Origin: a virus
Strand: one strand, 5' to 3'
DNA length: 64,000 nt
UHGV virus genome: UHGV-1351569
Part shown: piece after piece, positions 1,134-59,598 of the stretch
Numbering within the stretch: position 1 is the first letter of the stretch
Layout: each line of letters begins with the position of its first letter
Program-made: the position numbers and the translations under genes
The notes under the pieces: generated by a model
Seen by the model: only the letters and a program-made list of their open reading frames with translations
Databases searched by the model: none
What the model was told of the DNA's origin: nothing

Positions 1134-1135
1134 TA

Positions 1136-1159
1136 GGGAGCCTTCGGGCTCCCTTTTTT
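1136..1159 (+). terminator. Intrinsic terminator hairpin (GGGAGCC-TTCG-GGCTCCC) plus T6
   Basis: Perfect 7-bp GC stem, UUCG tetraloop, T-run. Confidence 0.7.
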
Positions 1160-1183
1160 ATTTCAAAATTTTTTCACAAAACG

Positions 1184-1213
1184 GTTTACAAGCATAAAGC
1201 TTTATGGTACTAT
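1184..1213 (+). promoter_or_regulatory. T4-type early promoter (GTTTAC ... TGGTACTAT), cassette copy A
   Basis: GTTTACA -35, about 17 bp spacer, extended -10 TGGTACTAT; preceded by AT-rich TTTTTTCACAAAAC UP-like element. Confidence 0.6.
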
Positions 1214-1247
1214 ACAACTATCAACTGATACGGATTTGGAGAATAAA

Positions 1248-1994
1248 ATGAAAACTGTAACTATCAATAAGGGTATCTACTTCGGTAAAGAAATCTCTGG
1301 AACTTTTGAGCTCTTAGGCGAATGGTTCCCAGATAATGCTCCGGTAGATGCACAAGGAGATGGTAAAGTTTTTGTTGAAATTGACGGTAAACGTCGCGGT
1401 GTTTGGGTTTACAAATCAGATATTTCATATGATGGTGTAAAAGTTGAAGAAGTTAAAGAATCGTATGAAGATATGAAAACCCGCATTAATAAAAGATTTA
1501 ATGTTATGGGAATGATGACGAATGGTATTATTAATGGAAATATTCGTTCATTGATTATCTCTGGTGCAGCAGGTATTGGTAAAACGTATTCTTTAGATAA
1601 AGCTTTAAATAAAGCAAATGATATTGGATACATTGAATATAAAAGCATTAATGGTAAAATCTCTGGTATTGGTCTTTATGAGCAGCTTTGGAATAATCGT
1701 GAAGAGAATTCTGTCCTTTTGATTGATGATGTGGATGTTTTCTCTGATATGGACATTCTTAATCTTCTAAAAGCTGCTCTGGACACTGGAGAGACCCGTA
1801 AAGTCTGCTGGAGCACGGCGTCTTCTTACTTAGAAGAAAAAGGCATTGAGCGTGAGTTTGAATTTAAAGGAACGATTGTTTTTATCACAAACGTTGACAT
1901 TGACCGCGAATTAGACCGTGGTACTAAACTTGCCCCCACACTTACAAGCATTAGTGTCCCGCTCGGTTTATTTGGATTTAGGCGTTCACACTAA
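1248..1994 (+). CDS. P-loop ATPase, N-terminal part (Walker A GAAGIGKT, Walker B LLIDDVD); frame ends shortly after a C5 run
   Basis: ORF track 1236..1994 with ATG at 1248 behind a GGAG RBS; Walker motifs read directly from the translation. Confidence 0.65.
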   Translation: MKTVTINKGIYFGKEISGTFELLGEWFPDNAPVDAQGDGKVFVEIDGKRRGVWVYKSDISYDGVKVEEVKESYEDMKTRINKRFNVMGMMTNGIINGNIRSLIISGAAGIGKTYSLDKALNKANDIGYIEYKSINGKISGIGLYEQLWNNREENSVLLIDDVDVFSDMDILNLLKAALDTGETRKVCWSTASSYLEEKGIEREFEFKGTIVFITNVDIDRELDRGTKLAPTLTSISVPLGLFGFRRSH

Positions 1995-2306: not shown

Positions 2307-2621
2307 ATGGAGGTAATGATGTTATACTCAAAGGCTCGTGAAATTTACGAAACTAAAATTAAAGAAGCAGTATTTCAGTTCGCAACAACGATGCGATGGA
2401 CAAATGATTGGGAGTATTCAAAAAATCATAAGAAGCCCATGGTGACAAGAAAGGCTCATATGTTAGTGTTAATAGACCGTGAGCAGATTAAAGCCCGAGA
2501 AGCCCTCCAGAATCATAAAAAGGCTGCCTTTGAATGGTTTATGGATAACACTGCTCCTGAGACTAAGAAAGCAGTGAGCGCCTGGTTCAGTGGAAAAAAT
2601 TGTGAAAGAAGTTTCTTTTAG
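2307..2621 (+). CDS. Hypothetical early protein (about 101-104 aa)
   Basis: ORF track; GGAGG RBS upstream of in-frame ATGs at 2316/2319. Confidence 0.55.
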   Translation: MEVMMLYSKAREIYETKIKEAVFQFATTMRWTNDWEYSKNHKKPMVTRKAHMLVLIDREQIKAREALQNHKKAAFEWFMDNTAPETKKAVSAWFSGKNCERSFF

Positions 2622-2623
2622 TG

Positions 2624-2653
2624 GTTTACAAGACTGTTCCTCTGTGGTACTAT
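2624..2653 (+). promoter_or_regulatory. T4-type early promoter, cassette copy D
   Basis: GTTTACA, spacer, TGGTACTAT; identical leader ...ATCAACTACGGAGGAACAGAAAATG. Confidence 0.6.
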
Positions 2654-2681
2654 ACAACTATCAACTACGGAGGAACAGAAA

Positions 2682-3209
2682 ATGAACGCTAAAGATATTT
2701 TCAACTTGGTAAATTACAACGATGGTAAATTTAAATCTGAAGCACAAAGCAAGTTCTTTAACGACATCTCAATCGGAGGTGAAATTACTGTTGATGGAGG
2801 ACAAATTTACAAATCCCGTTGGAATTGGATCGTTATTATCGATGAGATTGGTATTGTAGAAATTTACAAGAATACGAATAAAAATCGTACATTACACTGG
2901 TCTCGTGATACTAATGAACAGTACAAAAAGGATAAAGCATCTAAATTATCTCGTGTAACTCAAGAAGATATTGAGTTCATCAAGAAAGATATTTTAATGT
3001 ATGATAACTTAATTGCTGAAGAGCAAGCTGTTATTGATAAATTTGACGAGATTAAAGCTTCTCGTGAAATTCCTGATTTTATGAAAGAATCAGTAAATGA
3101 ACGATACTCTCTCATTTCAGAGCGTATTGAAACTTACAAAAAGCAAAGAGCTGAACGCCAAAATACTCTTCGGAAGTTTGAAGAACGGTTAAAGACGGTA
3201 CTCGCATAA
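2682..3209 (+). CDS. Hypothetical protein, 175 aa
   Basis: ORF track; GGAGG RBS 7 nt upstream of ATG. Confidence 0.65.
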   Translation: MNAKDIFNLVNYNDGKFKSEAQSKFFNDISIGGEITVDGGQIYKSRWNWIVIIDEIGIVEIYKNTNKNRTLHWSRDTNEQYKKDKASKLSRVTQEDIEFIKKDILMYDNLIAEEQAVIDKFDEIKASREIPDFMKESVNERYSLISERIETYKKQRAERQNTLRKFEERLKTVLA

Positions 3210-4576: not shown

Positions 4577-5605
4577 ATGAAAACTCGTTCTCAAATTGAA
4601 GATATGGTTCGTAACGCCAGCTATACTCGTGATGTTATGACATTTTTGTGCCAAAATAATTTAGACCCTGATAAAGTTAATCGTGTTATTCATCACTTTA
4701 AGTATACGAATAGCAGTGAATGGGTGCGTAATTTTAGTAAAGCGGGGTATATTACACAAATGACTGCTCGTGAGCAGCTCACCGATTTCTGTAAAACTAT
4801 TGATTATAAAAATCCTCTATTTGTTCAAGGCGTTGGTCAAAGTAAGGTCGATTTATCAACAGGATTTTTTAATCCAAATCATTATCGTATTGAATGGAGA
4901 TTTATTGCTCTATTCCGTAAACAATTAAAGCAAATTTTGTCTACTGCTAGTCGATTAAAAGGTTCTGATATTAACTTAAAGAATCTGAAATTTGATGGTT
5001 ATACTCTTCAGATGGAAGTAAGACCATTAAAAGAAAATAACAGAACTGCACGAATTAGCTTTAAACCTAATACAAAAAATTCTCTTTCAATTTGCGAATG
5101 CCTTAAATCGCAGTTGACAGAAGCATTTAAGTATATGGATGTTGTTGCTGCTGTTCAGTCTAAGATTTCACAACATTTCGAACGATTTAAATTAGACACA
5201 ACAACATATGAACTTGATATGATCGTTTCATTTAAATATGAATTTTTGAGAAAGGACGAAGTTACACAAGAGAAAAAGCAAGAAGTGCAAGATAACTTAA
5301 ATTTAAATTTATCCAATTACTCATCAAACGATCCTAAATTTTGGATGTATAGTTCAGGTAATAAGGATGCATGGAAATTCAATAAAGTGAATTTTCTTCC
5401 TGTTGAAAATCCGAGTCTTAAACCTGTTGAAAAATGGCATGCAGATGCGATTGAGAAGTCTATCAAGGCAGTAGATGATGAACTCGTTAAAGCAACTAAT
5501 GAAGTGCTAGAAGCTGAAAAGATGCTAGAAAAAGCTCAAGAAAAAGTCAAAAATCTCACGAAGCAACGTTCTAAACTGAACAATGCACTAAATGCACTGA
5601 ACTAG
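4577..5605 (+). CDS. Member 2 of the coiled-coil-tailed array (342 aa)
   Basis: ORF track; C-terminal coiled-coil-like tail ...LEAEKMLEKAQEKVKNLTKQRSKLNNALNALN. Confidence 0.65.
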   Translation: MKTRSQIEDMVRNASYTRDVMTFLCQNNLDPDKVNRVIHHFKYTNSSEWVRNFSKAGYITQMTAREQLTDFCKTIDYKNPLFVQGVGQSKVDLSTGFFNPNHYRIEWRFIALFRKQLKQILSTASRLKGSDINLKNLKFDGYTLQMEVRPLKENNRTARISFKPNTKNSLSICECLKSQLTEAFKYMDVVAAVQSKISQHFERFKLDTTTYELDMIVSFKYEFLRKDEVTQEKKQEVQDNLNLNLSNYSSNDPKFWMYSSGNKDAWKFNKVNFLPVENPSLKPVEKWHADAIEKSIKAVDDELVKATNEVLEAEKMLEKAQEKVKNLTKQRSKLNNALNALN

Positions 5606-5634
5606 TTTACTTTACCACAGGGATGTGGTATAAT
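5605..5634 (+). promoter_or_regulatory. T4-type early promoter (GTTTAC ... TGGTATAAT)
   Basis: Consensus -35 GTTTAC and extended -10 TGGTATAAT with 17-bp spacing, starting right after the preceding stop codon. Confidence 0.65.
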
Positions 5635-10427: not shown

Positions 10428-13286
10428 CAATTGAAAAAGAAATTGAAGGATTGATTCATAAAACTAATAAAGACCTTTTAAACGAGAATGCTAATAAAGA
10501 TTCTCGTGTTTTTCCAACTCAACGGGACCTTATGGCTGGTATTGTGTCTAAACACATTGCCAAAAATATGGTCCCGTCTTTTATTATGAAAGCGCATGAA
10601 AGCGGAATTATCCATTTCCATGATATTGATTATTCCCCTGCTCTTCCATTTACTAATTGCTGTTTAGTAGATTTAAAAGGAATGCTTGAAAACGGATTTA
10701 AGCTCGGTAATGCACAGATTGAAACTCCTAAATCAATCGGCGTTGCTACTGCAATTATGGCACAAATTACTGCACAGGTTGCTTCCCACCAATATGGCGG
10801 AACGACTTTTGCGAATGTAGATAAAGTACTTTCTCCTTATGTTAAACGCACCTATGCAAAACATATTGAGGATGCAGAAAAATGGCAAATCGCTGATGCG
10901 TTGAATTATGCTCAATCCAAAACAGAAAAAGATGTCTATGATGCATTCCAGGCGTATGAGTTAATTTAATTCAGGCTCATGTAAAACCGGTCTAAACGGG
11001 GAACCTCTCTAGTAGACAATCCCGTGCTAAATGTTCTTTTGAACTAAATGCCTAACGACTAACCGTGATGAATGTAGCGGTGTAGAATAGAAGCTAATGC
11101 TATTCGAAACGGCCGGCATCGAAAGATGAAGATATAGTCTAATCTGCATGGCGACATGCAGCAGTCATCTTGTATAAATAAGATTATCTTATGAATACGA
11201 GGTGAAACAATGAAATGGATAAAAAGACGTTGTACTAAAATAAAAGATAAAGACGCATTTACATACTTAGTTAAGTTTTCTAATGGCGACATTTATATCG
11301 GTTATAAAAAAGTTAGAACAATTAAAAACAAGCCCACAAACTGGAAAACTTACACAACGTCATCTAAGTATATAAATGAACGCTTAAAAACTGATACACC
11401 TACTAAATGGATAATTTTAAAAACATTTGATAGTTATAAAGACGCATTAAAACATGAAGAAGAGGTCATACGTAAATATTTTTATAGCAAAAAATGTTTA
11501 AATAAATCCATAGGCGGTAAAAAGTTTTATAAGCATCCGGATACTGAAGAACATATTCAAAAATTAAGAGATGCTCATAAGGGTAAAGTGTTATCCGAAT
11601 CTCATAAAAACAATATAAAATCTTCTGTAGCTGAATATTATGCTAAAAACGGAAGATCTAAGGAACATGTGCAAAATAATATCAATAGTCGAAAAAGTAA
11701 AAAACAAGTATCGATAAAGCTTAAAAATAAAACTTTTAGAAGTTTTAAAAAAGCGGCGGAATATTTAAATTGCACTGAAAGTGAAGTCGAAACTCATCCT
11801 CTTGTTTTGAGTATTAAGACTACTATTCATAAAGTTCCTGAATATGTGGTTGTTGACGGTATTAAGTATACGTCTTATATAGAAGCAGCTAAAGCGCTAA
11901 ATTTTCATCCTAGCACTATAAAAGAACGTTGCGTATCTATGGACTATCCAAATTTTGTTGTTTCATATAAACGGGCATGAATTTGCGACTCATGCCGAAT
12001 ATAATGATGAAGTAAATACACTTTTCAGCTCTAATGGACAAACGCCTTTTGTAACAATTACGTTTGGTACGGGAACTGACTGGACTGAACGAATGATTCA
12101 GAAAGCAATTCTGAAAAATCGTATTAAAGGTCTTGGTCGCGATGGGATAACTCCTATTTTCCCTAAGCTTGTTATGTTCGTTGAAGAAGGTGTTAATCTT
12201 TATAAAGATGACCCGAACTATGATATTAAACAGCTTGCTCTAGAGTGCGCAAGCAAAAGAATGTATCCTGACATCATTTCGGCTAAGAACAATAAAGCTA
12301 TCACCGGTTCATCTATTCCTGTTTCTCCAATGGGTTGCCGCAGTTTCTTGAGCGTATGGAAAGATTCGACTGGTAATGAAATTCTTGATGGACGTAATAA
12401 TCTTGGCGTTGTAACACTGAATCTTCCTCGCATCGCGTTAGATTCTTATATTGGAACACAGTTCAATGAACAGAAATTTGCCGAATTGTTCAATGAACGA
12501 ATGGATTTATGTTTTGAAGCTTTGATGTGTAGAATTAGTTCCTTAAAAGGAGTTAAAGCGACTGTTGCTCCTATTCTTTATCAAGAAGGTGCATTCGGGG
12601 TTCGTCTTAAACCAGATGACGACATAATTGAGTTATTTAAAAACGGTAGAAGTTCAGTGTCTTTGGGATACATTGGTATTCACGAATTGAATATTCTTGT
12701 CGGTCGTGATATTGGGCAGGAAATTTTGACTAAAATGAATGCTCATCTTAAGCAGTGGACTGAAAGAACCGGTTTTGCTTTTAGTTTGTATTCTACACCT
12801 GCTGAAAACCTGTGCTATCGCTTCTGTAAACTTGATACCGAAAAATATGGAAGTGTAAAGGATGTTACTGATAAAGGCTGGTACACTAACAGTTTCCATG
12901 TTTCAGTAGAAGAAAATATCACTCCGTTTGAAAAGATTTCTCGTGAAGCGCCATATCATTTCATTGCGACAGGTGGTCACATTTCTTATGTTGAACTTCC
13001 TGATATGAAAAATAACTTAAAAGGTCTTGAGGCTGTATGGGATTATGCTGCACAACATTTAGATTATTTTGGCGTTAACATGCCAGTAGATAAATGTTTT
13101 ACGTGTGGAAGTACCCATGAAATGACTCCTACTGAAAACGGGTTTGTTTGTTCTATTTGTGGAGAAACTGATCCTAAAAAGATGAACACAATAAGAAGAA
13201 CTTGTGGTTATTTGGGAAATCCGAACGAACGTGGATTTAATCTTGGCAAAAATAAAGAAATCATGCATAGGGTTAAACACCAATGA
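10424..13286 (+). CDS. nrdD: Anaerobic ribonucleotide reductase NrdD, interrupted by a group I intron (exon 1 10424..about 10961, exon 2 about 11995..13286)
   Basis: Exon 1 (181 codons) and exon 2 (C-terminal about 430 codons) match recalled T4 NrdD; frame breaks with TAA at 10967; splice points are inferred from the recalled 1033-nt T4 intron length. Confidence 0.8.
11173..11180 (+). promoter_or_regulatory. Late promoter box TATAAATA upstream of the intron ORF
   Basis: Exact TATAAATA about 30 nt upstream of the endonuclease ATG. Confidence 0.45.
11210..11980 (+). CDS. Intron-encoded GIY-YIG homing endonuclease (I-TevII-like), 256 aa
   Basis: N-terminal YLVKFSNGDIYIGYKK (GIY...YIG motif); sits inside the nrdD intron as I-TevII does in T4. 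Confidence 0.8.
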   Translation: MKWIKRRCTKIKDKDAFTYLVKFSNGDIYIGYKKVRTIKNKPTNWKTYTTSSKYINERLKTDTPTKWIILKTFDSYKDALKHEEEVIRKYFYSKKCLNKSIGGKKFYKHPDTEEHIQKLRDAHKGKVLSESHKNNIKSSVAEYYAKNGRSKEHVQNNINSRKSKKQVSIKLKNKTFRSFKKAAEYLNCTESEVETHPLVLSIKTTIHKVPEYVVVDGIKYTSYIEAAKALNFHPSTIKERCVSMDYPNFVVSYKRA

Positions 13287-15353: not shown

Positions 15354-15370
15354 GGGCTTCGGCCCTTTTT
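15353..15370 (+). terminator. Terminator hairpin AGGGC-TTCG-GCCCT plus T5
   Basis: GC stem, UUCG loop, T-run. Confidence 0.65.
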
Positions 15371-20447: not shown

Positions 20448-20634
20448 CATTAACGATGAATTCATAGCAAATATTGATTACACCGAAGAAGATTCTAGAT
20501 ATGTTGGAATAATTTATATCACATCAAAAGCAGCACAAGGTGTTGTTTGCATGGCTGAATTTGATGAATACTTTTTAGATTATGATGATATGATAGAATG
20601 GTCTAAAAGATACATTAAAAGGAATCTTTTGTGA
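20371..20634 (+). CDS. Hypothetical protein (start uncertain; likely ATG 20419 or GTG 20428)
   Basis: ORF track; overlaps the previous ORF in another frame. Confidence 0.4.
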   Translation: MTHLNHYKIWLYLVLRMHTVKFSTFDINDEFIANIDYTEEDSRYVGIIYITSKAAQGVVCMAEFDEYFLDYDDMIEWSKRYIKRNLL

Positions 20635-22313
20635 AGAATTTTAAACTAAACCGAGTTAGGTATCAAAATATAATGTCAGTAGGTGGAAATCCTATTGACA
20701 TTCAATTAGATAAGGTTCAAAAAACTCTTATTACTGGACGAAATGGCGGTGGTAAGTCTACTATGTTAGAAGCCATCACATTTGGGCTTTTTGGCAAGCC
20801 ATTTCGTGATGTAAAGAAAGGTCAATTAATAAACAGCACAAATAAGAAAGAACTTTTAGTTGAACTGTGGATGGAATATGATGAGAAAAAGTACTATATC
20901 AAAAGAGGACAAAAACCAAACGTTTTCGAAATCACCGTTAACGGTACACGTCTTAATGAATCTGCCAGCAGTAAAGATTTCCAAGCAGAATTTGAACAGC
21001 TTATCGGAATGTCATATGCCAGTTTCAAGCAGATTGTTGTTCTTGGTACAGCAGGGTATACCCCTTTCATGGGTTTGTCGACCCCTGCACGAAGAAAGCT
21101 TGTGGAAGACCTGCTTGAGGTAGGAACATTAGCTGAAATGGATAAGCTTAATAAAGCACTAATACGTGAATTAAATTCACAAAACCAAGTGCTTGATGTT
21201 AAAAAAGATAGTATTATCCAACAAATTAAAATATATAATGATAACGTTGAACGCCAGAAAAAATTAACTGGTGATAACCTTACTCGTCTGCAGAATATGT
21301 ATGATGATTTGGCAAAAGAAGCTAGAACGTTAAAATCGGAAATAGAAGAAGCTAATGAAAGATTAGTTAATATTGTTTTGGATGAAGACCCGACTGATGC
21401 ATTTAATAAAATCGGTCAAGAAGCATTTTTGATTAAATCAAAAATTGACTCGTATAATAAAGTCATTAATATGTATCACGAAGGTGGATTATGTCCAACC
21501 TGTTTGTCACAATTAAGTTCCGGCGATAAAGTTGTTTCTAAAATTAAAGATAAAGTTTCTGAATGCACGCATTCGTTTGAACAGCTTTCAACACATCGTG
21601 ATAATTTAAAAGTTCTTGTTGATGAATACCGAGATAATATTAAAACCCAACAGTCGTTGGCGAATGATATTCGCAATAAAAAGCAATCTCTAATCACGAC
21701 TGTAGATAAAGCTAAAAAAGTTAAAGCGGCTATAGAAAAAGCATCTTCTGAGTTTATTGACCATGCTGATGAAATAGCACTGCTTCAAGAAGAACTTGAT
21801 AAAATTGTTAAGACAAAAACTAATTTAGTAATGGAAAAATACCATAGAGGAATTTTGACTGATATGCTCAAAGATTCTGGTATTAAAGGTGCTATTATTA
21901 AAAAGTACATTCCATTATTTAATAAGCAAATTAACCATTATCTTAAAATAATGGAAGCGGATTATGTGTTTACATTAGATGAAGAATTTAATGAGACAAT
22001 TAAATCCCGTGGTCGTGAAGATTTTAGTTATGCTTCATTTAGTCAAGGTGAAAAAGCACGAATTGATATTGCTCTTTTATTTACTTGGCGTGATATTGCT
22101 GAAAAAGTTTCAGGTGTTAAAATAAACACACTAATTCTTGATGAAGTTTTTGATTCAGCAACCGATGTTGAAGGTGTAAAAGCTATTTCAACTATTTTAG
22201 ATAGTTTAAAAAATACTAATGTTTTTGTTATTTCACATAGAGACCATGACCCACAGGCATATGGTCAGCATCTCCAAATGAAGAAAGTTGGTCGATTTAC
22301 TGTAATGGTTTAA
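20631..22313 (+). CDS. 46: Recombination ATPase gp46 (Rad50/SbcC-like), 560 aa
   Basis: N-terminal Walker A GRNGGGKST, central coiled-coil with CPTC zinc hook, C-terminal signature/Walker B (LILDEVFD); length as T4 gp46. Confidence 0.9.
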   Translation: MKNFKLNRVRYQNIMSVGGNPIDIQLDKVQKTLITGRNGGGKSTMLEAITFGLFGKPFRDVKKGQLINSTNKKELLVELWMEYDEKKYYIKRGQKPNVFEITVNGTRLNESASSKDFQAEFEQLIGMSYASFKQIVVLGTAGYTPFMGLSTPARRKLVEDLLEVGTLAEMDKLNKALIRELNSQNQVLDVKKDSIIQQIKIYNDNVERQKKLTGDNLTRLQNMYDDLAKEARTLKSEIEEANERLVNIVLDEDPTDAFNKIGQEAFLIKSKIDSYNKVINMYHEGGLCPTCLSQLSSGDKVVSKIKDKVSECTHSFEQLSTHRDNLKVLVDEYRDNIKTQQSLANDIRNKKQSLITTVDKAKKVKAAIEKASSEFIDHADEIALLQEELDKIVKTKTNLVMEKYHRGILTDMLKDSGIKGAIIKKYIPLFNKQINHYLKIMEADYVFTLDEEFNETIKSRGREDFSYASFSQGEKARIDIALLFTWRDIAEKVSGVKINTLILDEVFDSATDVEGVKAISTILDSLKNTNVFVISHRDHDPQAYGQHLQMKKVGRFTVMV

Positions 22314-22345
22314 TTTATTAGAGATTATGCTTTAATTTATTAGAG
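22309..22345 (+). repeat. Two 15-bp direct repeats (TTTAATTTATTAGAG) flanking a MotA box
   Basis: Identical 15-mers at 22309-22323 and 22331-22345. Confidence 0.6.
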
Positions 22346-22351
22346 TATAAT
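22328..22351 (+). promoter_or_regulatory. Putative middle promoter (MotA box TGCTTTA, 11 bp, TATAAT)
   Basis: Consensus MotA box centred near -30 of an exact TATAAT. Confidence 0.5.
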
Positions 22352-28655: not shown

Positions 28656-28676
28656 GGGACCTCCGGGTCCCTTTTT
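28656..28676 (+). terminator. Terminator hairpin GGGACC-TCCG-GGTCCC plus T5
   Basis: Directly after the gene 43 stop. Confidence 0.65.
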
Positions 28677-28759
28677 CATATAAGTAATATAAATCTATAC
28701 TTATGAAAAAGAGATGATTCTGGACCTTTTGGATTCATTAAAAATTTTTTCACAAAACT

Positions 28760-28789
28760 GTTTACATCTCTGTTCTTCCATGGTACTAT
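28760..28789 (+). promoter_or_regulatory. T4-type early promoter, cassette copy C
   Basis: GTTTACA ... TGGTACTAT with the same leader as copy D. Confidence 0.6.
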
Positions 28790-28817
28790 ACAACTATCAA
28801 CTACGGAGGAACAGAAA

Positions 28818-29069
28818 ATGAAAAATATTCAAACTAATTTTATTCAAAATTTAAAAGTTGTTAACGCAGAAAAAGCGAATAAACTTTTTAAAGTTAAAGA
28901 ATTTGAAAATGAAGGTAACACTTACGGTATTATAGAACAAAATGGAATGGTGACTGGATTAGAAATTTATAATGGTAAAGGAAAATTTCAGTCACAGCCA
29001 ATTTCTGTTATGGGTGTAAGAAAAGGAATTAAAACTGAAGATGCTTTAAAGTTATTTGTTAAGTTTTAA
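28818..29069 (+). CDS. Hypothetical protein, 83 aa
   Basis: ORF track; GGAGG RBS. Confidence 0.6.
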   Translation: MKNIQTNFIQNLKVVNAEKANKLFKVKEFENEGNTYGIIEQNGMVTGLEIYNGKGKFQSQPISVMGVRKGIKTEDALKLFVKF

Positions 29070-29874: not shown

Positions 29875-30615
29875 ATGATTAGTGACTCTATGACAGTTGA
29901 AGAAATCCGTCTTCATTTGGGACTTGCATTAAAAGAAAAAGATTTCGTAGTTGATAAAACTGGCGTTAAAACTATTGAAATTATTGGCGCATCATTTGTA
30001 GCAGATGAACCGTTTATTTTTGGCGCTCTTAATGATGAATACATTCAGCGTGAACTTGAATGGTATAAATCTAAAAGCTTGTTCGTTAAAGATATTCCAG
30101 GTGAAACACCGAAGATTTGGCAACAAGTAGCATCTTCTAAAGGTGAAATTAACTCGAATTATGGTTGGGCTATCTGGTCAGAAGATAACTATGCCCAGTA
30201 TGATATGTGTTTAGCTGAACTTGGTCAAAATCCTGATTCTCGACGTGGTATCATGATTTATACTCGTCCATCCATGCAATTTGACTACAATAAAGATGGC
30301 ATGTCAGATTTCATGTGTACTAATACAGTACAGTACCTGATTCGTGATAAGAAAGTCAATGCAGTAGTAAGCATGCGCTCAAATGATGTGGTCTTCGGAT
30401 TCCGTAATGATTATGCATGGCAAAAATACGTATTAGATAAATTAGTATCTGATTTGAATGCAGGCGATTCAACTCGTCAGTATAAAGCAGGTTCTATTAT
30501 ATGGAATGTTGGAAGTCTTCATGTATATTCTCGTCATTTTTACTTGGTTGATCATTGGTGGAATACTGGCGAAACTCATATTGTGAAAAAAGATTATAAC
30601 GGTGAGTGGAAATGA
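29875..30615 (+). CDS. 42: dCMP hydroxymethylase gp42, 246 aa
   Basis: Thymidylate-synthase-like fold sequence matching recalled T4 gp42. Confidence 0.9.
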   Translation: MISDSMTVEEIRLHLGLALKEKDFVVDKTGVKTIEIIGASFVADEPFIFGALNDEYIQRELEWYKSKSLFVKDIPGETPKIWQQVASSKGEINSNYGWAIWSEDNYAQYDMCLAELGQNPDSRRGIMIYTRPSMQFDYNKDGMSDFMCTNTVQYLIRDKKVNAVVSMRSNDVVFGFRNDYAWQKYVLDKLVSDLNAGDSTRQYKAGSIIWNVGSLHVYSRHFYLVDHWWNTGETHIVKKDYNGEWK

Positions 30616-31454
30616 TTCAATTCGTAATTCCAAGCTATCAACGCGTAGGGGCAGTTTCTGCCCTTGATATGTTTCCGACTGATTATGAACCTCATATTGT
30701 AGTACGTGAACACGAAGAAAAAGCTTATTATGACGCTTACGGGTCTAGGGCTAAAATTATAACTATTCCTGATGATGTAAACGGAATTGCCGGTACTCGT
30801 AAAGCAATTACTGATATGTATGCAGGTCAACGAATCTGGATGATTGACGATGATACTACTATTCGTATGAGTTCAATGCGAAAAAGAGATGATCGTCGTT
30901 GTGTAGATAAAGTCAATCAATTGACTCGTGAACAGTTCTATGAATTGATTCAATATGTTGAGGATGCCATGGATTGTGGGTATTATCATGGCCATGCTCG
31001 TCTACCTATTTTTAAAATTACTTCATCTTGGGGTAATTATCGTGAAAATTCATATGGATTCACGAATACATGGTATGACCTCGGAAAACTTACTACAGAA
31101 CAAATTGGGTATGGAAAAATTGATTTATGCGAAGATATGTATGCATTTCTCAATTTAATTAATCAAGGTTATCCGCATTTGGCCTTGTTCAAATATCTGG
31201 TTGTATCTGGAAAAGCACAAGCTCCTGGCGGGTGTAGTTCAATTCGTAGTAATTCTAAACATAATAGAGCGCTTGAGCAAATCAATAGAGAGTTTCCAGA
31301 GCAAGCTCGTTGGAAAACTTCTAATATTGAAAAACGAAAATCGTTGGGTGAAGAAGACGAGCCATTAAAGGTTCTTCGTATGTGTGTTTCGCGTAAAGAA
31401 AAATCAGAAGCATTTCATAAGTTTAATGCTATTCATCCAATAGCAGTTGATTAA
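30612..31454 (+). CDS. GT-A-fold glycosyltransferase (DxD motif) in the beta-gt slot; probably a T2/T6-type beta-alpha-glucosyltransferase
   Basis: VIPSYQR and WMIDDDTT (DxD) motifs typical of GT-A; unlike the recalled T4 beta-gt sequence (MKIAIINMGNN...); ATG overlaps the gene 42 TGA. Confidence 0.6.
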   Translation: MIQFVIPSYQRVGAVSALDMFPTDYEPHIVVREHEEKAYYDAYGSRAKIITIPDDVNGIAGTRKAITDMYAGQRIWMIDDDTTIRMSSMRKRDDRRCVDKVNQLTREQFYELIQYVEDAMDCGYYHGHARLPIFKITSSWGNYRENSYGFTNTWYDLGKLTTEQIGYGKIDLCEDMYAFLNLINQGYPHLALFKYLVVSGKAQAPGGCSSIRSNSKHNRALEQINREFPEQARWKTSNIEKRKSLGEEDEPLKVLRMCVSRKEKSEAFHKFNAIHPIAVD

Positions 31455-31479
31455 TGCCTAAATTTATTGTGTTATAATT
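31453..31479 (+). promoter_or_regulatory. Putative middle promoter upstream of uvsX (MotA-box-like ATGCCTAAA, TATAAT)
   Basis: Imperfect MotA box 12 bp upstream of an exact TATAAT. Confidence 0.3.
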
Positions 31480-31531
31480 ACCCTATCTTTAACCAGTGAG
31501 GAAAATATAATGATGCCTATGGAAAAAATGA

Positions 31532-32713
31532 ATGTCTATTGCAGATTTAAAATCCCGTTTGATTAAAGCTTCCACTTCTAAAATGACTGCTGAACTGACT
31601 ACATCTAAATTCTTTAATGAAAAGGATGTAATCCGTACAAAAATCCCAATGCTTAATATCGCTATTTCAGGTGCGATTGACGGTGGTATGCAGTCTGGTT
31701 TAACCATTTTTGCAGGTCCTTCTAAACACTTTAAATCAAATATGTCTTTGACTATGGTTGCGGCGTATTTGAACAAATATCCTGACGCGGTATGTCTATT
31801 CTATGATAGCGAATTTGGTATTACACCAGCTTATTTGCGATCCATGGGAGTTGACCCGGAACGAGTAATTCATACACCAATTCAGTCAGTTGAACAGCTG
31901 AAAATTGATATGGTGAATCAGCTTGAAGCTATTGAGCGTGGTGAAAAAGTTATTGTATTCATCGACTCAATCGGTAATATGGCTTCTAAGAAAGAAACGG
32001 AAGATGCCTTGAATGAAAAATCTGTGGCAGATATGACTCGTGCTAAATCACTGAAGTCATTATTCCGTATTGTTACTCCTTATTTTAGTATTAAAAACAT
32101 TCCATGTGTTGCGGTTAACCATACAATTGAAACAATTGAAATGTTTAGTAAAACCGTGATGACAGGTGGTACAGGCGTAATGTATTCGGCTGATACTGTA
32201 TTCATTATCGGTAAGCGCCAGATTAAAGATGGTTCTGATCTTCAGGGGTATCAATTTGTTCTAAATGTAGAAAAATCTCGTACCGTTAAAGAAAAAAGTA
32301 AATTCTTTATTGATGTTAAATTTGATGGTGGTATCGATCCTTATTCTGGATTGCTAGATATGGCTCTAGAATTAGGATTTGTAGTAAAACCTAAGAATGG
32401 TTGGTATGCTCGTGAATTTCTTGATGAAGAAACCGGCGAGATGATTCGCGAAGAAAAATCTTGGCGTGCAAAAGATACCAACTGCACTACATTCTGGGGT
32501 CCTTTATTTAAGCATCAACCATTCCGAGATGCTATTAAACGTGCTTATCAGTTAGGTGCTATTGATAGTAATGAAATTGTTGAAGCTGAAGTTGACGAAT
32601 TGATTAACTCAAAGGTTGAAAAATTTAAATCTCCAGAAAGTAAAAGTAAATCAGCAGCTGATTTAGAAACTGACCTAGAACAGTTAAGTGATATGGAAGA
32701 ATTTAATGAATAA
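31532..32713 (+). CDS. uvsX: Recombinase UvsX (RecA/Rad51 family), 393 aa
   Basis: ...DLKSRLIKASTSK...GPSKHFKSN... matches recalled T4 UvsX. Confidence 0.92.
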   Translation: MSIADLKSRLIKASTSKMTAELTTSKFFNEKDVIRTKIPMLNIAISGAIDGGMQSGLTIFAGPSKHFKSNMSLTMVAAYLNKYPDAVCLFYDSEFGITPAYLRSMGVDPERVIHTPIQSVEQLKIDMVNQLEAIERGEKVIVFIDSIGNMASKKETEDALNEKSVADMTRAKSLKSLFRIVTPYFSIKNIPCVAVNHTIETIEMFSKTVMTGGTGVMYSADTVFIIGKRQIKDGSDLQGYQFVLNVEKSRTVKEKSKFFIDVKFDGGIDPYSGLLDMALELGFVVKPKNGWYAREFLDEETGEMIREEKSWRAKDTNCTTFWGPLFKHQPFRDAIKRAYQLGAIDSNEIVEAEVDELINSKVEKFKSPESKSKSAADLETDLEQLSDMEEFNE

Positions 32714-47024: not shown

Positions 47025-47048
47025 AATTTAAAATTTTTTCATAAAACT

Positions 47049-47078
47049 ATATACATCAGTAGTTGATTATGGTACTAT
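47049..47078 (+). promoter_or_regulatory. Early promoter, cassette copy G (degenerate -35, TGGTACTAT)
   Basis: Same -10/leader module as copies A and F. Confidence 0.45.
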
Positions 47079-47121
47079 ATCAATATCAACTACTGATACA
47101 GAAAACAACTTGGAGAATAAA

Positions 47122-47391
47122 ATGGAAAACTTAATTATCATCGAACAATCTTTCAACGATTATGGTATGGCTTACGGTTATCGTGCGATAATGGAAGATT
47201 CTCGTGGATGTGTTATCGATATTGCTGAATGTAAAGATTTACTGCAGCTTTTGAAGATTGTTCGCAAAAATTGGGATTGTGAAAACATTAAAGTTCGTGT
47301 TGTAACGGAAGAAGAAACTATTTTTCATGATGTAAAATTTGCCAAAGGTGCTGCTACTCTTCTGAAACGCATCGCTCCACTGTTCAATTAA
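47122..47391 (+). CDS. Hypothetical protein (about 89 aa)
   Basis: ORF track 47110..47391; ATG 47122 behind the shared TGGAGAATAAA leader. Confidence 0.55.
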   Translation: MENLIIIEQSFNDYGMAYGYRAIMEDSRGCVIDIAECKDLLQLLKIVRKNWDCENIKVRVVTEEETIFHDVKFAKGAATLLKRIAPLFN

Positions 47392-48928: not shown

Positions 48929-50746
48929 ATGATTAAGAATGAAATTAAAATTCTGAGCGATATTGAACATATCAAAAAGCGTAGCGGCATGTACATTGGT
49001 TCTTCTGCTAATGAAATGCATGAGCGCTTTCTGTTTGGTAAATGGGAAAGTGTTCAGTATGTACCTGGTCTTGTTAAGCTTATTGATGAAATTATCGATA
49101 ACTCAGTAGATGAAGGTATTCGTACTAAGTTTAAATTCGCGAATAAAATTAATGTTACTATTAAAAACAATCAAGTAACAGTTGAAGATAACGGTCGTGG
49201 TATTCCACAAGCGATGGTTAAAACACCTACTGGTGAAGAAATTCCTGGTCCTGTTGCCGCCTGGACTATTCCAAAAGCAGGTGGTAACTTTGGTGATGAT
49301 AAAGAACGCGTCACTGGCGGTATGAACGGTGTTGGTTCTAGTTTAACTAACATTTTTTCTGTGATGTTTGTCGGTGAAACTGGTGATGGTCAAAATAATA
49401 TTGTAGTTCGTTGTTCAAATGGCATGGAAAATAAATCGTGGGAAGATATTCCTGGAAAATGGAAAGGAACTCGCGTTACTTTCATTCCTGATTTTATGTC
49501 ATTTGAAACTAATGAGCTATCTCAGGTTTATCTTGACATTACACTAGATCGTCTCCAGACACTTGCAGTAGTTTATCCTGATATTCAATTTACCTTTAAT
49601 GGTAAAAAGGTTCAGGGTAATTTTAAGAAATATGCACGTCAATATGATGAGCATGCTATCGTTCAAGAACAAGAAAACTGTTCTATTGCGGTCGGTCGTT
49701 CACCTGATGGTTTTCGTCAATTAACGTACGTCAATAACATTCATACTAAGAATGGTGGCCATCATATTGACTGTGTTATGGATGATATTTGTGAAGACCT
49801 TATTCCACAAATCAAACGCAAGTTCAAAATTGATGTAACTAAAGCACGTGTTAAAGAATGTTTGACTATCGTTATGTTTGTTCGTGATATGAAAAACATG
49901 CGATTTGATTCTCAAACTAAAGAGCGTTTGACTTCTCCATTTGGTGAAATTCGCAGTCATATTCAGCTTGATGCTAAAAAGATTTCACGTGCTATTCTAA
50001 ATAATGAAGCAATTTTAATGCCAATTATTGAAGCTGCCTTGGCTCGTAAATTGGCGGCAGAAAAAGCAGCAGAAACTAAAGCAGCTAAAAAGGCTTCTAA
50101 AGCTAAGGTTCATAAACATATTAAAGCGAATCTTTGTGGTAAAGATGCTGACACTACTCTTTTCTTGACTGAGGGTGATTCTGCTATCGGATATCTTATT
50201 GATGTTCGTGATAAAGAACTTCATGGTGGTTATCCATTACGTGGTAAAGTTCTCAACAGTTGGGGTATGTCATATGCTGATATGCTTAAAAACAAAGAAC
50301 TGTTTGATATTTGCGCAATCACTGGATTAGTTCTTGGTGAAAAAGCCGAAAACTTGAATTATCATAATATCGCAATTATGACCGATGCTGACCACGATGG
50401 TCTAGGAAGCATTTATCCTTCTCTGCTCGGATTTTTTAGTAATTGGCCAGAATTGTTTGAACAAGGAAGAATTCGCTTTGTCAAAACTCCTGTAATCATC
50501 GCTCAGGTCGGTAAAAAACAAGAATGGTTTTATACAGTCGCTGAATATGAGAGTGCCAAAGATGCTCTACCTAAACATAGCATCCGTTATATTAAAGGAC
50601 TTGGCTCTTTGGAAAAATCTGAATATCGTGAGATGATTCAAAACCCAGTATATGATGTTGTTAAACTTCCTGAGAACTGGAAAGAGCTTTTTGAAATGCT
50701 CATGGGAGATAATGCTGACCTTCGTAAAGAATGGATGAGCCAGTAG
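48929..50746 (+). CDS. 39: DNA topoisomerase II large subunit (GyrB-like ATPase plus TOPRIM), unsplit, about 605 aa
   Basis: MIKNEIKILSDIEHIKKRSGMYIGS... matches recalled T4 gp39 N-terminus; a single continuous frame includes the C-terminal part that T4 encodes separately as gene 60. Confidence 0.9.
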   Translation: MIKNEIKILSDIEHIKKRSGMYIGSSANEMHERFLFGKWESVQYVPGLVKLIDEIIDNSVDEGIRTKFKFANKINVTIKNNQVTVEDNGRGIPQAMVKTPTGEEIPGPVAAWTIPKAGGNFGDDKERVTGGMNGVGSSLTNIFSVMFVGETGDGQNNIVVRCSNGMENKSWEDIPGKWKGTRVTFIPDFMSFETNELSQVYLDITLDRLQTLAVVYPDIQFTFNGKKVQGNFKKYARQYDEHAIVQEQENCSIAVGRSPDGFRQLTYVNNIHTKNGGHHIDCVMDDICEDLIPQIKRKFKIDVTKARVKECLTIVMFVRDMKNMRFDSQTKERLTSPFGEIRSHIQLDAKKISRAILNNEAILMPIIEAALARKLAAEKAAETKAAKKASKAKVHKHIKANLCGKDADTTLFLTEGDSAIGYLIDVRDKELHGGYPLRGKVLNSWGMSYADMLKNKELFDICAITGLVLGEKAENLNYHNIAIMTDADHDGLGSIYPSLLGFFSNWPELFEQGRIRFVKTPVIIAQVGKKQEWFYTVAEYESAKDALPKHSIRYIKGLGSLEKSEYREMIQNPVYDVVKLPENWKELFEMLMGDNADLRKEWMSQ

Positions 50747-50775
50747 TTTACTTTACCACAAGGATGTGGTATAAT
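50746..50775 (+). promoter_or_regulatory. T4-type early promoter (GTTTAC ... TGGTATAAT)
   Basis: Near-identical to the promoter at 5605. Confidence 0.6.
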
Positions 50776-54452: not shown

Positions 54453-55010
54453 ATGCAGAAAACGAATCCGGGTTTACAGAGACTATTTCAGATTCCGACA
54501 TTTACCCTATCGAACAGTGACTTGACTAGTGAAATGAAGGTCAAAATTGCTGATACAGCAAGATACTCTTTAAAACAAAACCCGAACCAGGATAAAGCAG
54601 AAGTTATTGAAAGATGTCGTATCGCGGTGTACGCAGAGTTTTTTGTAGCAGATTGGCTAAGCGGGTATGTTAACAAAGGCCAAGAGGATGTTAATGACCC
54701 GTATACATACGCATGGGATGTATTGGCGCATCCAAGATATTGCGGGCTTCGTGTAGAAGTTAAGACACACCAAACTGACTCACGTTGGATTTCGGTAACA
54801 ACCGGATGCAGCGGAGAGTATCCATACGGTTCTGGAATAAATCTAGGGCCCATTCTGAATCACCAAGTCGCTGACTGTATAATTATATTCAACACTAAAG
54901 AAATTCATCCAGGTGTCATCCAGTACACTCCGAAGTTCATCGGTGATAGAGAAGACCTTCGTAAAGTTGTAAGAAAAAGCAACTACAACGGATGGTATCT
55001 TTCCATTTAA
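54453..55010 (+). CDS. denB: Endonuclease IV DenB-position protein, 185 aa
   Basis: Length and position (between rIIB and ndd) as T4 denB; name by synteny. Confidence 0.65.
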   Translation: MQKTNPGLQRLFQIPTFTLSNSDLTSEMKVKIADTARYSLKQNPNQDKAEVIERCRIAVYAEFFVADWLSGYVNKGQEDVNDPYTYAWDVLAHPRYCGLRVEVKTHQTDSRWISVTTGCSGEYPYGSGINLGPILNHQVADCIIIFNTKEIHPGVIQYTPKFIGDREDLRKVVRKSNYNGWYLSI

Positions 55011-55027
55011 AAAAATTTCACAAAACA

Positions 55028-55057
55028 GTTTACATACCACAAGGACTGTGGTACTAT
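55028..55057 (+). promoter_or_regulatory. T4-type early promoter, cassette copy F
   Basis: GTTTACA ... TGGTACTAT with the same leader as copy A. Confidence 0.6.
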
Positions 55058-55091
55058 ATAACTATCAACTGATACGGATTTGGAGAATAAA

Positions 55092-55298
55092 ATGTTTACT
55101 ACAGCTGAATTAAAACGAGCAAAAGCTAAGAAAGGGCAAGGAAAATATAAAGCTGAATTAGTTAAAGAACTTCAGTTTGCTGAGGCTGAATTGAATTCAA
55201 TGATTATTCAAAATGCTCCAGAAACTGAAATTGCTCTTAAACGTATTGCGAATAAGTGTCTTCGTGATGCAATCGTCGATCTTTTAGCGGATTATTGA
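55092..55298 (+). CDS. Hypothetical protein (about 68 aa)
   Basis: ORF track 55080..55298; ATG 55092 behind the shared leader. Confidence 0.5.
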   Translation: MFTTAELKRAKAKKGQGKYKAELVKELQFAEAELNSMIIQNAPETEIALKRIANKCLRDAIVDLLADY

Positions 55299-55303
55299 GT
55301 AAA

Positions 55304-55567
55304 ATGAAATTTAAATTTTATTACGCTAAACATAAAATAACTGATGAGTTTGTGTCAGTTGAATATTCTAGCGATGATGAAGGTATGATTTATACTCGCT
55401 TAGGGTTATCGCACTGGGAGTCTGATACGCCTTATTTTTCAACTCCTGAAGAAATTACACGTTTAGTTAATGGTCATATGAATGACCACTGGAATGTAAT
55501 TCTTTCAGATAGTCTTAAAGCGGCTATTAATAGTAATGAAATGAAAATCGCTGAGATTGAACTATGA
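55304..55567 (+). CDS. Hypothetical protein (about 87 aa)
   Basis: ORF track 55295..55567; ATG 55304. Confidence 0.5.
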   Translation: MKFKFYYAKHKITDEFVSVEYSSDDEGMIYTRLGLSHWESDTPYFSTPEEITRLVNGHMNDHWNVILSDSLKAAINSNEMKIAEIEL

Positions 55568-55753
55568 GTTCATTATGGTGGTGTTTTGTTTGGTTAATTA
55601 GTATTCCATTGATTTGTTTAGTATTTACTTTTGTGATGAGGTTATTATGAAAATTTTGAATTCTGTACTTATTGCTTGTGCATGGTGGGTTGCACAGGTT
55701 TCAGCGGTAGTAGTTGGTATTCACATTTATTACGAATATTTTTAAAAAAGTTG

Positions 55754-55782
55754 TTTACAAGACTGTTCTTCCGTGGTACTAT
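55754..55782 (+). promoter_or_regulatory. T4-type early promoter, cassette copy E
   Basis: GTTTACA ... TGGTACTAT with the same leader as copies C and D. Confidence 0.6.
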
Positions 55783-55810
55783 TACCCTATCAACTACGGA
55801 GGAACAGAAA

Positions 55811-55924
55811 ATGAAAAAGATTGTTAAAGCTATATGGAATGTAGTTATAATACTAATAGTTTTGAGTATATTCCCAATCGTTTTAATGATTGATGTATTA
55901 AACGTTTACTTTGGATTTATGTGA
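55811..55924 (+). CDS. Small membrane peptide, 37 aa
   Basis: ATG behind the shared GGAGGAACAGAAA leader; hydrophobic (IWNVVIILIVLSIFPIVLMI); the track ORF 55676..55924 starts inside the promoter. Confidence 0.4.
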   Translation: MKKIVKAIWNVVIILIVLSIFPIVLMIDVLNVYFGFM

Positions 55925-58834: not shown

Positions 58835-58840
58835 TTTTAG

Positions 58841-58866
58841 GGAGAGCTGAGGCTCTCCCTTTTTTA
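58841..58866 (+). terminator. Terminator hairpin GGGAGAGC-TGAG-GCTCTCCC plus T6
   Basis: 8-bp stem; same flanking sequence as the terminator at 1136. Confidence 0.7.
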
Positions 58867-58892
58867 TTTCAAAAAATTTTTTCACAAAACGG

Positions 58893-58922
58893 TTTACAAC
58901 CAAAGCATACTGTGGTACTATA
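58893..58922 (+). promoter_or_regulatory. T4-type early promoter, cassette copy B
   Basis: TTTTTTCACAAAACGGTTTACA ... TGGTACTAT, nearly identical to copy A. Confidence 0.6.
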
Positions 58923-58962
58923 CAACTATCAACTACTGATACAGAATTACGGAGATTAGAAA

Positions 58963-59598
58963 ATGTCTAAAGTAACTTACATCATCAAAGCTTCTAACGA
59001 TGTTCTGAATGAAAAAACTGCTGCGATTTTAATTACCATTGCTAAGAAAGATTTCATTACAGCTGCAGAAGTTCGTGAGGTGCATCCAGATTTAGGTAAT
59101 GCAGTAGTTAATAGTAATATTGGGGTATTGATTAAAAAAGGCCTGGTGGAGAAATCTGGTGATGGATTAATCATTACTGGTGAAGCTCAGGATATTATTT
59201 CAAATGCAGCAACTTTATACGCACAGGAAAACGCTCCGGAACTGCTGAAAAAACGAGCAACCCGTAAAGCTCGCGAGATTACTTCTGATATGGAAGAAGA
59301 TAAAGACTTCATGTTAAAACTTTTAGATGAAAATGGATTTGTTCTTAAAAAGGTTGAAACTTATCGTAGTAACTATCTTGCTATTTTAGAAAAACGCACT
59401 CACGGAATTCGTAATTTTGAAATTAACAACAATGGAAATATGCGAATTTTTGGATACAAAATGATGGAACATCATATTCAGAAATTTACTGATATCGGAA
59501 TGTCATGTAAAATCGCTAAAAACGGTAATGTGTATCTTGACATTAAACGCTCGGCAGAAAACATTGAAGCAGTAATCACCGTAGCATCTGAACTGTGA
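58963..59598 (+). CDS. motA: Middle-transcription activator MotA, 211 aa
   Basis: Exact T4 MotA length; position between 52 and asiA. Confidence 0.85.
   Translation: MSKVTYIIKASNDVLNEKTAAILITIAKKDFITAAEVREVHPDLGNAVVNSNIGVLIKKGLVEKSGDGLIITGEAQDIISNAATLYAQENAPELLKKRATRKAREITSDMEEDKDFMLKLLDENGFVLKKVETYRSNYLAILEKRTHGIRNFEINNNGNMRIFGYKMMEHHIQKFTDIGMSCKIAKNGNVYLDIKRSAENIEAVITVASEL

Follow-up and report, generated by a model that had tools for sequence, protein, structure and literature searches.

The early promoters of phage T4 have been catalogued from the late 1980s on, and this P_E class is reportedly treated by Liebig and Rueger 1989, Wilkens and Rueger 1996 and Miller et al. 2003. They combine UP, -35 and TGn motifs with a -10 element and outcompete host promoters for the sigma-70 holoenzyme, and some of them are stimulated further by Alt ADP-ribosylation of alpha (PMC2988021). 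A related composite, the promoter-early-stem-loop (PeSL), was defined in RB49 and phi1 as an early promoter plus a stem-loop terminator, and mini-circles of these phages revealed sequenced crossovers located, within such cassettes, between the -10 element and the ATG (Arbiol et al. 2010, PMC2839356). PeSLs were later described for T4 and PST, where the promoters follow TTTACW-N17-TAYWAT and the element includes the Shine-Dalgarno (SD) sequence and the ATG; in that pair, an exchange at ndd.4/.5 is flanked by two such elements (Comeau et al. 2014, Fig. 6A; PMC4122927). Those without one part are termed degraded ("1/2") PeSLs. Here we analyse seven near-identical cassettes of this kind in a stretch of 64,000 nucleotides of the virus genome UHGV-1351569 (hereafter, the window). 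An earlier note, made from the letters of the window, had described them as repeated terminator/early-promoter/leader modules that could act as recombination handles.

The best explanation, to which we assign a probability of about 85%, is that the seven cassettes belong to a T4-like coliphage and are orthologous to T4 sigma-70 early promoters, each fused to a short leader and a strong ribosome-binding site (RBS), that their near-identity comes from descent and selection, and that gene shuffling is a by-product, as in the PeSL model. The feature is real, the earlier reading of it is correct and it is already known. Papers of 2010 and, for T4/PST, of 2014 had already put forward promoter/terminator cassettes as shuffling points in T4-like phages, so that the case carries little weight as a discovery and has some use as a confirmation on a new genome.

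The 22-mer core TGGTACTATACAACTATCAACT occurs on the + strand without mismatches at 1205, 2645, 28781 and 58913, with one mismatch at 55049, three at 47070 and four at 55774. Dinucleotide-preserving shuffles (n = 100) gave no match to it, which ruled out chance or a low-complexity repeat as the origin of the seven copies. An unsupervised repeat search of the window independently recovered one family of seven copies and 84 nt at the same seven sites, and the seven + strand occurrences of the octamer TATCAACT in the window all lie within the cassettes. The seven-locus repeat announced in the earlier note is thus confirmed, with ATG ends at 1250, 2684, 28820, 47124, 55094, 55813 and 58965, all exact. 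A scan of IMG/VR for the exact core returned 20 stretches on six contigs, too few for a survey of downstream genes.

Each module measures 80 to 100 nt and reads, from 5' to 3', an A/T-rich UP element, GTTTACA, a 14-nt spacer differing in each copy, TGG-TACTAT, ACAACTATCAACT, a leader of 22 to 37 nt with a GGAG SD, and the ATG; GGAG and ATG are present in all seven. The UP stretch AAAATTTTTTCACAAAAC or a near variant was found in five cassettes, being degenerate at 2606-2623 and different at 55735, and the 25 nt upstream of the -35 element are 72-88% A+T in the six cassettes with an exact GTTTACA. The latter motif had been claimed for every copy; this holds for six, while the cassette at 47049 carries ATATACA, as does its T4 counterpart. 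The -35 to -10 region of all seven follows TGGTACTAT, with a 17-bp spacer, TG at -15/-14 and a -10 element of the form TAnnnT. The arrangement TTTACA-17-TACTAT with TG was recovered by a generic promoter scan in five cassettes; the remaining two were read directly. TTTACA/TATACA-N17-TACTAT fits all seven, with TTTACA in six and one -35 mismatch in the seventh. Coordinates are collected in Table 1.

Table 1. Early-promoter cassettes, variable genes behind them and intrinsic terminators of the window. Start sites (the A of ATCAACT) are predicted from the -10 spacing only.
Feature	Coordinates	Strand	Details
Cassette 1, nrdC.10 early promoter	1161..1250	+	UP 1161-1183; -35 GTTTACA 1184-1190; TGn/-10 1205-1213; T4 "early promoter 54.4"; predicted start A1220; leader A; SD GGAGAATAAAA 1238-1248; ATG 1248-1250
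Cassette 2, nrdC.8 early promoter	2606..2684	+	degenerate UP; -35 2624-2630; -10 2648-2653; predicted start 2660; leader B; ATG 2682
Cassette 3, early promoter 3' of gene 43 (T4 imm.1 promoter)	28739..28820	+	-35 28760-28766; -10 28784-28789; predicted start 28796
Cassette 4, early promoter between motB and cef	47027..47124	+	deviant -35 ATATACA 47049-47055; -10 47073-47078; predicted start 47085; leader C; SD GGAGAATAAAA 47112-47122; ATG 47122
Cassette 5, early promoter after denB (T4 ndd.6 promoter)	55006..55094	+	-35 55028-55034; -10 55052-55057; predicted start 55064; leader A; SD GGAGAATAAAA 55082-55092; ATG 55092
Cassette 6, ndd.4 early promoter	55735..55813	+	-35 55753-55759; -10 55777-55782; TACCCTATCAACT variant; predicted start 55789; leader B; ATG 55811
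Cassette 7, motA early promoter	58866..58965	+	-35 58892-58898; -10 58916-58921; predicted start 58928; leader D; SD GGAGATTAGAA 58951-58961; ATG 58963
Variable gene, 83 aa, phrog_18567	28818..29069	+	function unassigned; absent from T4; unrelated 78-aa gene in most relatives
Variable gene, 89 aa, phrog_3720	47122..47391	+	~201 nt of window missing in T4, from 5 nt past cassette ATG
Variable two-gene module, 68 aa (phrog_4535) + 87 aa (phrog_2390)	55092..55567	+	five architectures in eight genomes
Intrinsic terminator after nrdC.11	1135..1160	+	AGGGAGCC-TTCG-GGCTCCCT + T-run; 8 pairs, 6 GC; hairpin 1135-1154 abuts cassette 1; terminator annotated in T4 record U76612
Gene 43 terminator	28656..28676	+	hairpin 28656-28671; GGGACC-TCCG-GGTCCC + T5; ~65 nt upstream of cassette 3; annotated in SA21RB
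Intrinsic terminator after motA.1	58839..58865	+	AGGGAGAGC-TGAG-GCTCTCCCT + T-run; hairpin 58839-58860 abuts cassette 7

Judged from its alignments, the window comes from a Tequatrovirus with about 95% identity to T4, of which it forms the early region. Its first 6 kb match hundreds of Tequatrovirus genomes at ~97%, and the whole aligns to T4 (AF158101) in reverse orientation from 56456 (nrdC.11) via the origin to 160197 (gene t), with 18 discontinuities and an identity of 87-98% save for one block at 77%. All seven cassettes have counterparts at orthologous sites in T4, where they precede nrdC.10, nrdC.8, imm.1, cef, ndd.6, ndd.4 and motA. T4 GenBank records mark four of these as promoters: U76612 has a terminator plus the -35/-10 of "early promoter 54.4" ahead of nrdC.10 and another -35/-10 pair ahead of nrdC.8, and X75802 has one promoter at the ndd.6 site and one at the ndd.4 site. 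This orthology and these annotations support the proposal that, in a T4-type phage, unrelated genes share an early promoter, a 5' untranslated region (UTR) and an RBS. A 161-nt query around cassette 1 matched 3225 places in 609 phage records, with 5 to 7 per genome in the best hits; the cassettes occur in some 500-600 phage records. Since the sites are orthologous in T4 and hundreds of isolates, they are fixed, ancient regulatory sites and not recent insertions. The high identity of the copies could also be produced by a transposable or site-specifically recombining cassette recently copied to seven places, and the helper protein acting on the PeSL stem-loop about which Arbiol et al. speculated in 2010 (PMC2839356) would suit such an element. 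However, positions shared with T4 and so many isolates are old and fixed, the spacers are locus-specific and differ between copies, and we saw neither target-site duplications nor terminal inverted repeats nor a linked recombinase. With all of them orthologous to those of T4, we rejected this explanation, which appears hardly credible.

The seven cassettes match the UP/-35/TGn/-10 description of T4 early promoters (PMC2988021), sharing with these the same seven T4 sites, GTTTAC(A) and extra conserved positions beyond the sigma-70 elements. They differ in forming a tight subfamily, defined by the TACTAT -10 element followed by the conserved start-site stretch, among ~18 early-promoter-like sites of the window; the other sites have TATAAT, TATAGT or TATTAT as -10 element and unrelated start regions. 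This subfamily goes slightly beyond the cited literature, as a small refinement. Across eight genomes and three orthologous loci, variation affected 11 of 42 spacer columns, 0 of 21 columns of the -35 element and 4 of 66 columns of the 22-nt core. In T2, the -10 hexamer itself is altered (TAATAT, TATTAT) and CTATCAACT is retained. The Dhakavirus IME08 has a terminator followed by GTTTACA...TGATACTATAGACCTATCAACT, and the ...CCTATCAACT box recurs there. The near-invariance of the core and the -35 element next to a drifting spacer therefore indicates purifying selection on the -10/start-site box, and simple recent duplication, on these comparisons, does not account for the identity of the cassettes. 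A more elaborate reading joins several of these features: the seven would be a discrete co-regulated immediate-early subclass marked by the retained box and an SD optimal for the endoribonuclease RegB, the box would serve, for instance, in stimulation that depends on Alt, in promoter escape or as a mark on the RNA 5' end, and the leaders would be homogenised by ectopic gene conversion and not by selection alone. If this rather improbable reading were true, the near-invariant box, kept in Dhakavirus, would have a specific function of its own. The window also holds a second twin pair of early promoters, TAGTTTACTTTACCACAGGGATGTGGTATAAT, at 5603-5634 and 50744-50775 (31/32 identical), and a separate recurrent leader box, CTACTGAGGAGATTA, before three other genes (5646, 35029 and 45403); cassette-like reuse therefore extends beyond the seven copies.

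The earlier note counted two leader variants, and we found four. Leader A (GATACGGATTTGGAGAATAAAATG) precedes the genes at 1248 and 55092, leader B (ACGGAGGAACAGAAAATG) those at 2682, 28818 and 55811, leader C (ACTGATACAGAAAACAACTTGGAGAATAAAATG) the gene at 47122 and leader D (ACTGATACAGAATTACGGAGATTAGAAAATG) the gene at 58963 (motA). Hence, the grouping of the second set is right, with three exact copies of leader B, and that of the genes at 1248, 47122 and 55092 is right for the first and the last, while leader C has in common with A only its last 15 nt, TTGGAGAATAAAATG. In cassette 3, the window carries leader B where T4 and most relatives carry leader A.

In T4, the optimal RegB site is GGAGAAUAAAA, and motA is named a good substrate (Durand 2006, PMC1702504). 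The SD of leaders A and C corresponds exactly to this RegB/S1 optimum: a scan of the window with GGAGRAYARAA gave perfect matches (11/11) only at 1238, 47112 and 55082, in these three leaders, and the motA leader D (58951) matched 10/11. Leader B (GGAGGAACAGAAA) contains GGAGG, which is present in four well-cleaved RegB transcripts (Durand et al., PMC1702504), but fits the 11-nt consensus poorly unless shifted by 1 nt. The cassettes thus resemble the RegB/S1 targets of T4 early mRNAs (PMC1702504; reviewed in PMC3014915) in the SD of leaders A and C, in leader D and in their single-stranded leaders, and differ from them in leader B, and the cleavage sites of the window are predicted ones. The RegB-optimal SD in three leaders is again slightly beyond the cited literature, and small as a refinement.

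From the start site to 30 nt past the ATG, the seven leaders have fold energies between 0 and -7 kcal/mol, values that shuffled sequence also reaches; as predicted by folding, they are unstructured, with the SD in a single-stranded context. This bears on the idea that the ATCAACT... leader is a riboregulator or a 5' UTR bound by small RNAs, rather than a DNA-level promoter with its initial transcribed sequence. Conservation reaching 13 nt past the -10 hexamer, and into another genus, would be in line with such a structured RNA, but folding no better than that of shuffles, and leaders whose length and sequence differ among the four variants beyond ATCAACT, led us to reject it as very improbable.

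The comparison with PeSLs is apt. The seven cassettes fit TTTACW-N17-TAYWAT with SD and ATG, apart from one -35 mismatch in one copy, and they are similar to PeSLs (PMC2839356, PMC4122927) as composite AT-rich/-35/-10/SD/ATG modules that lie in hyperplastic regions, beside indels and replacements between close relatives. They differ in the stem-loop, which abuts two of the seven (1135-1154 and 58839-58860) and lies ~65 nt away from a third, and the mini-circles are reported from RB49/phi1 only. No stem-loop is present at 2645, 47070, 55049 and 55774; the four cassettes without a terminator begin 3 to 30 nt past the stop codon of the preceding open reading frame (ORF), as in cassette 2, where nrdC.9 stops at 2621. 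The terminator that the earlier note included in the repeated module is accordingly right for two copies, with the third at a distance, and missing from the other four; the common upstream context it saw at 1136 and 58841 does exist, in the outer stem and in the T-run/UP context. Because the stem-loop is absent from the others, only two or three of the seven are strict PeSLs: all seven qualify as T4 early promoters, and two to three as full PeSLs. By their description in PMC2839356, which cites Repoila et al. 1994, the elements of the T-even internal-protein (IP) locus are also alike, with T4-type early promoters flanking small, very polymorphic, swapped accessory genes; that locus is a different one, outside the window, and the likeness is by description only. 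The repeat search also retrieved a family of near-identical terminator hairpins, AAGGGCTTCGGCCCTT, at 15357, 18991, 23701, 25871, 48860, 54139 and 54369, which recall the GGGC/GCCC motifs tied to T4 deletions (Mosig et al. 1998, as cited in PMC2839356).

The gene content next to the promoter differs at three of the seven loci between the window, T4 and other isolates, and homology breaks in the cassette or at the ATG. Among the 18 discontinuities between the window and T4, three (at 28804, 47129 and 55094) start in a cassette or at most 5 nt from its ATG (binomial P ~7.5e-4); the remaining early promoters of the window account for 0 of the 18. At the gene 43 promoter, we found three alleles: T4 and CT01 have leader A followed by imm.1; F1, PYPS2T, IsaacDaniel, Sf22 and SA21RB have leader A, a 78-aa gene (MKIVYGCL...) and then imm.1; and the window has leader B and the unrelated 83-aa gene. 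Homology between the window and T4 stops here exactly at the end of the 22-nt core and restarts at the imm.1 ATG. A tblastn search detected the 83-aa gene in 31 Tequatrovirus records, T2, RB27, RB51, RB68 and Ozark among them, with an identity of 97-100%, and in seven Dhakavirus records with 53-54%. In IME08, the one Dhakavirus checked, the homologue (54%) lies between rI.-1 and mobD.3 with its own terminator-promoter, GTTTACA-N-TGATACTATAGACCTATCAACT (2396-2480), and therefore the same small gene occupies different loci across genera, each time behind such a promoter.

The denB locus is more diverse. The window encodes the 68-aa and 87-aa genes there, T2 the 68-aa gene together with the final 8 codons of the 87-aa one, RB51 and PYPS2T the 87-aa gene with leader A, and KarlGJung, KMB26 and UPWr_E2 the 87-aa gene with leader B; T4 keeps only an 8-codon remnant, MKIAEIEL. 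The remnants of T4 and T2 (MKIVEIEL) are joined to an upstream ATG and still overlap the start of ndd.6 (window 55536-55553; T4 ~167025-167017, ~27013). They are two independent deletions that share one end-point, a AATGAAATGAAAATC site within the gene. In T4 imm.1, the end of the leader and the gene start likewise consist of the 18-mer AATGAAATGAAAATCGCT. Leader B at this locus is identical in KarlGJung and KMB26 to the leader at other loci and has a 1-nt variant in UPWr_E2; since it differs from leader A by indels and ~3 substitutions, its presence at an orthologous site points to past exchange between cassette copies. Counts of leaders A and B at denB by megablast with ~100-nt queries were unusable, as the neighbouring cassette ~600 bp off was joined in, and the claim is that both forms occur in several independent isolates. 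The module exchanged at ndd.4/.5 between T4 and PST (PMC4122927) adjoins the one that varies in the window. At the motB/cef locus, T4 appears, from the coordinates of the alignment joints, to keep a short remnant ORF after an internal deletion.

Comparing downstream gene content across relatives, as the earlier note had proposed, thus showed three loci that are polymorphic at the cassette, with leader exchange implied at denB, and four that are stable. A search of 50,697 phage records found no clean deletion from one cassette to another. Several points weigh against our preferred reading. At nrdC.10, nrdC.8, ndd.4 and motA, the window and T4 have identical genes. Synthetic clean junctions for the two tandem pairs, 1205x2645 and 55049x55774, had no single-piece full-length match in the same records. 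The T4 and T2 deletions at the denB (ndd.6) locus used SD/ATG-like microhomologies of 8-9 nt (AATAAAATG / AATGAAATG; AAATGAAA) and not the 22-nt core, and the deletion proposed at the T4 cef locus, with its left edge 5 nt past the ATG, looks unlike a cassette-by-cassette crossover. That indels lie near cassettes may be due in part to a tendency of dispensable genes to follow directly on early promoters. The full stem-loop is restricted to two or three cassettes, leader B deviates from the RegB consensus in spite of its GGAGG, and the start sites of all seven are spacing-based predictions for this phage; a literature search for genome-wide T4 start-site maps found nothing relevant. The absence of clean junctions and the microhomology ends therefore make the cassettes look like passive homology patches and tolerated end-points, not efficient excision sites.

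Much of this would also be expected if the cassettes were pure expression signals, similar to each other through selection for promoter strength and RegB-sensitive initiation, without causal role in shuffling and with nearby indels coming from dispensable genes and survivable deletions. The near-invariant -35 and core beside a drifting spacer, the four stable loci, the missing deletion products and the deletions through microhomologies all speak for it. Nevertheless, we regard it as doubtful, since the homology at 28804 ends precisely with the core, the whole leader and gene being substituted, independent mutation would not recreate at denB, in KarlGJung and KMB26, the leader B seen elsewhere, and crossovers between -10 and ATG have been sequenced in RB49/phi1 (PMC2839356).

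Under the preferred reading of ancient early promoters with shuffling as a by-product, and by analogy with T4, host RNA polymerase holoenzyme would engage the UP element (through the alpha C-terminal domain, alpha-CTD), GTTTACA, TGn and TACTAT just after DNA injection. Transcription would start at the predicted A of ATCAACT, and a leader of 22-37 nt would expose the GGAG SD for immediate translation of the first gene. In leaders A, C and D, the SD would double as a RegB/S1 site, as in T4, and bring rapid shut-off minutes later. Since this SD is the RegB/S1 optimal site, one module would encode both halves of an immediate-early pulse, expression and then RegB inactivation of the initiation region. 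The near-identity of the copies would result from common descent, strong purifying selection on the -35 and the -10/start-site box, and occasional exchange between copies. As a by-product, the cassettes, mostly through their 3' SD/ATG part, may offer short homology to the highly active T4 recombination system, so that small non-essential promoter-proximal genes would be gained, lost or swapped there with their expression signals kept, in agreement with the published PeSL model.

One promoter core thus drives three to five alternative small-gene sets across isolates, and the leader, with its exact RegB optimum, and the gene served assort independently of each other, a small step past the cited literature. 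As for natural deletions, their ends tend to fall in the SD/ATG portion of the cassette. The subfamily, the RegB optimum and the leader assortment are refinements and no new kind of system. These observations could be useful for annotating accessory-gene hot spots and for choosing insertion sites in engineered T4-like phages.

Other features of the window were noted. The homing-endonuclease genes mobC and mobB of T4 are absent from the window (joints at 13283/13297 and 17773/17798), and the T4 b-gt/segA region is replaced at 30597-31544 by ~950 bp with a 282-aa ORF (30606-31454). The gene behind cassette 1, nrdC.10 (AAA-like NTPase, phrog_1250; 1248-2217), is a single 325-aa gene in T4, whereas in the window one extra base near 1933, in a C-run (GCCCCCAC), splits it into the ORFs 1248-1994 and 1918-2217, which means either a pseudogene or an error in sequencing the homopolymer. 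Finally, a 22-bp tandem duplication (22305-22348; ATGGTTTAATTTATTAGAGATT / ATGCTTTAATTTATTAGAGTAT) is found at the stop of gene 46 (ORF 20631-22313), its first unit overlapping the 3' end of the gene and its second unit following it.

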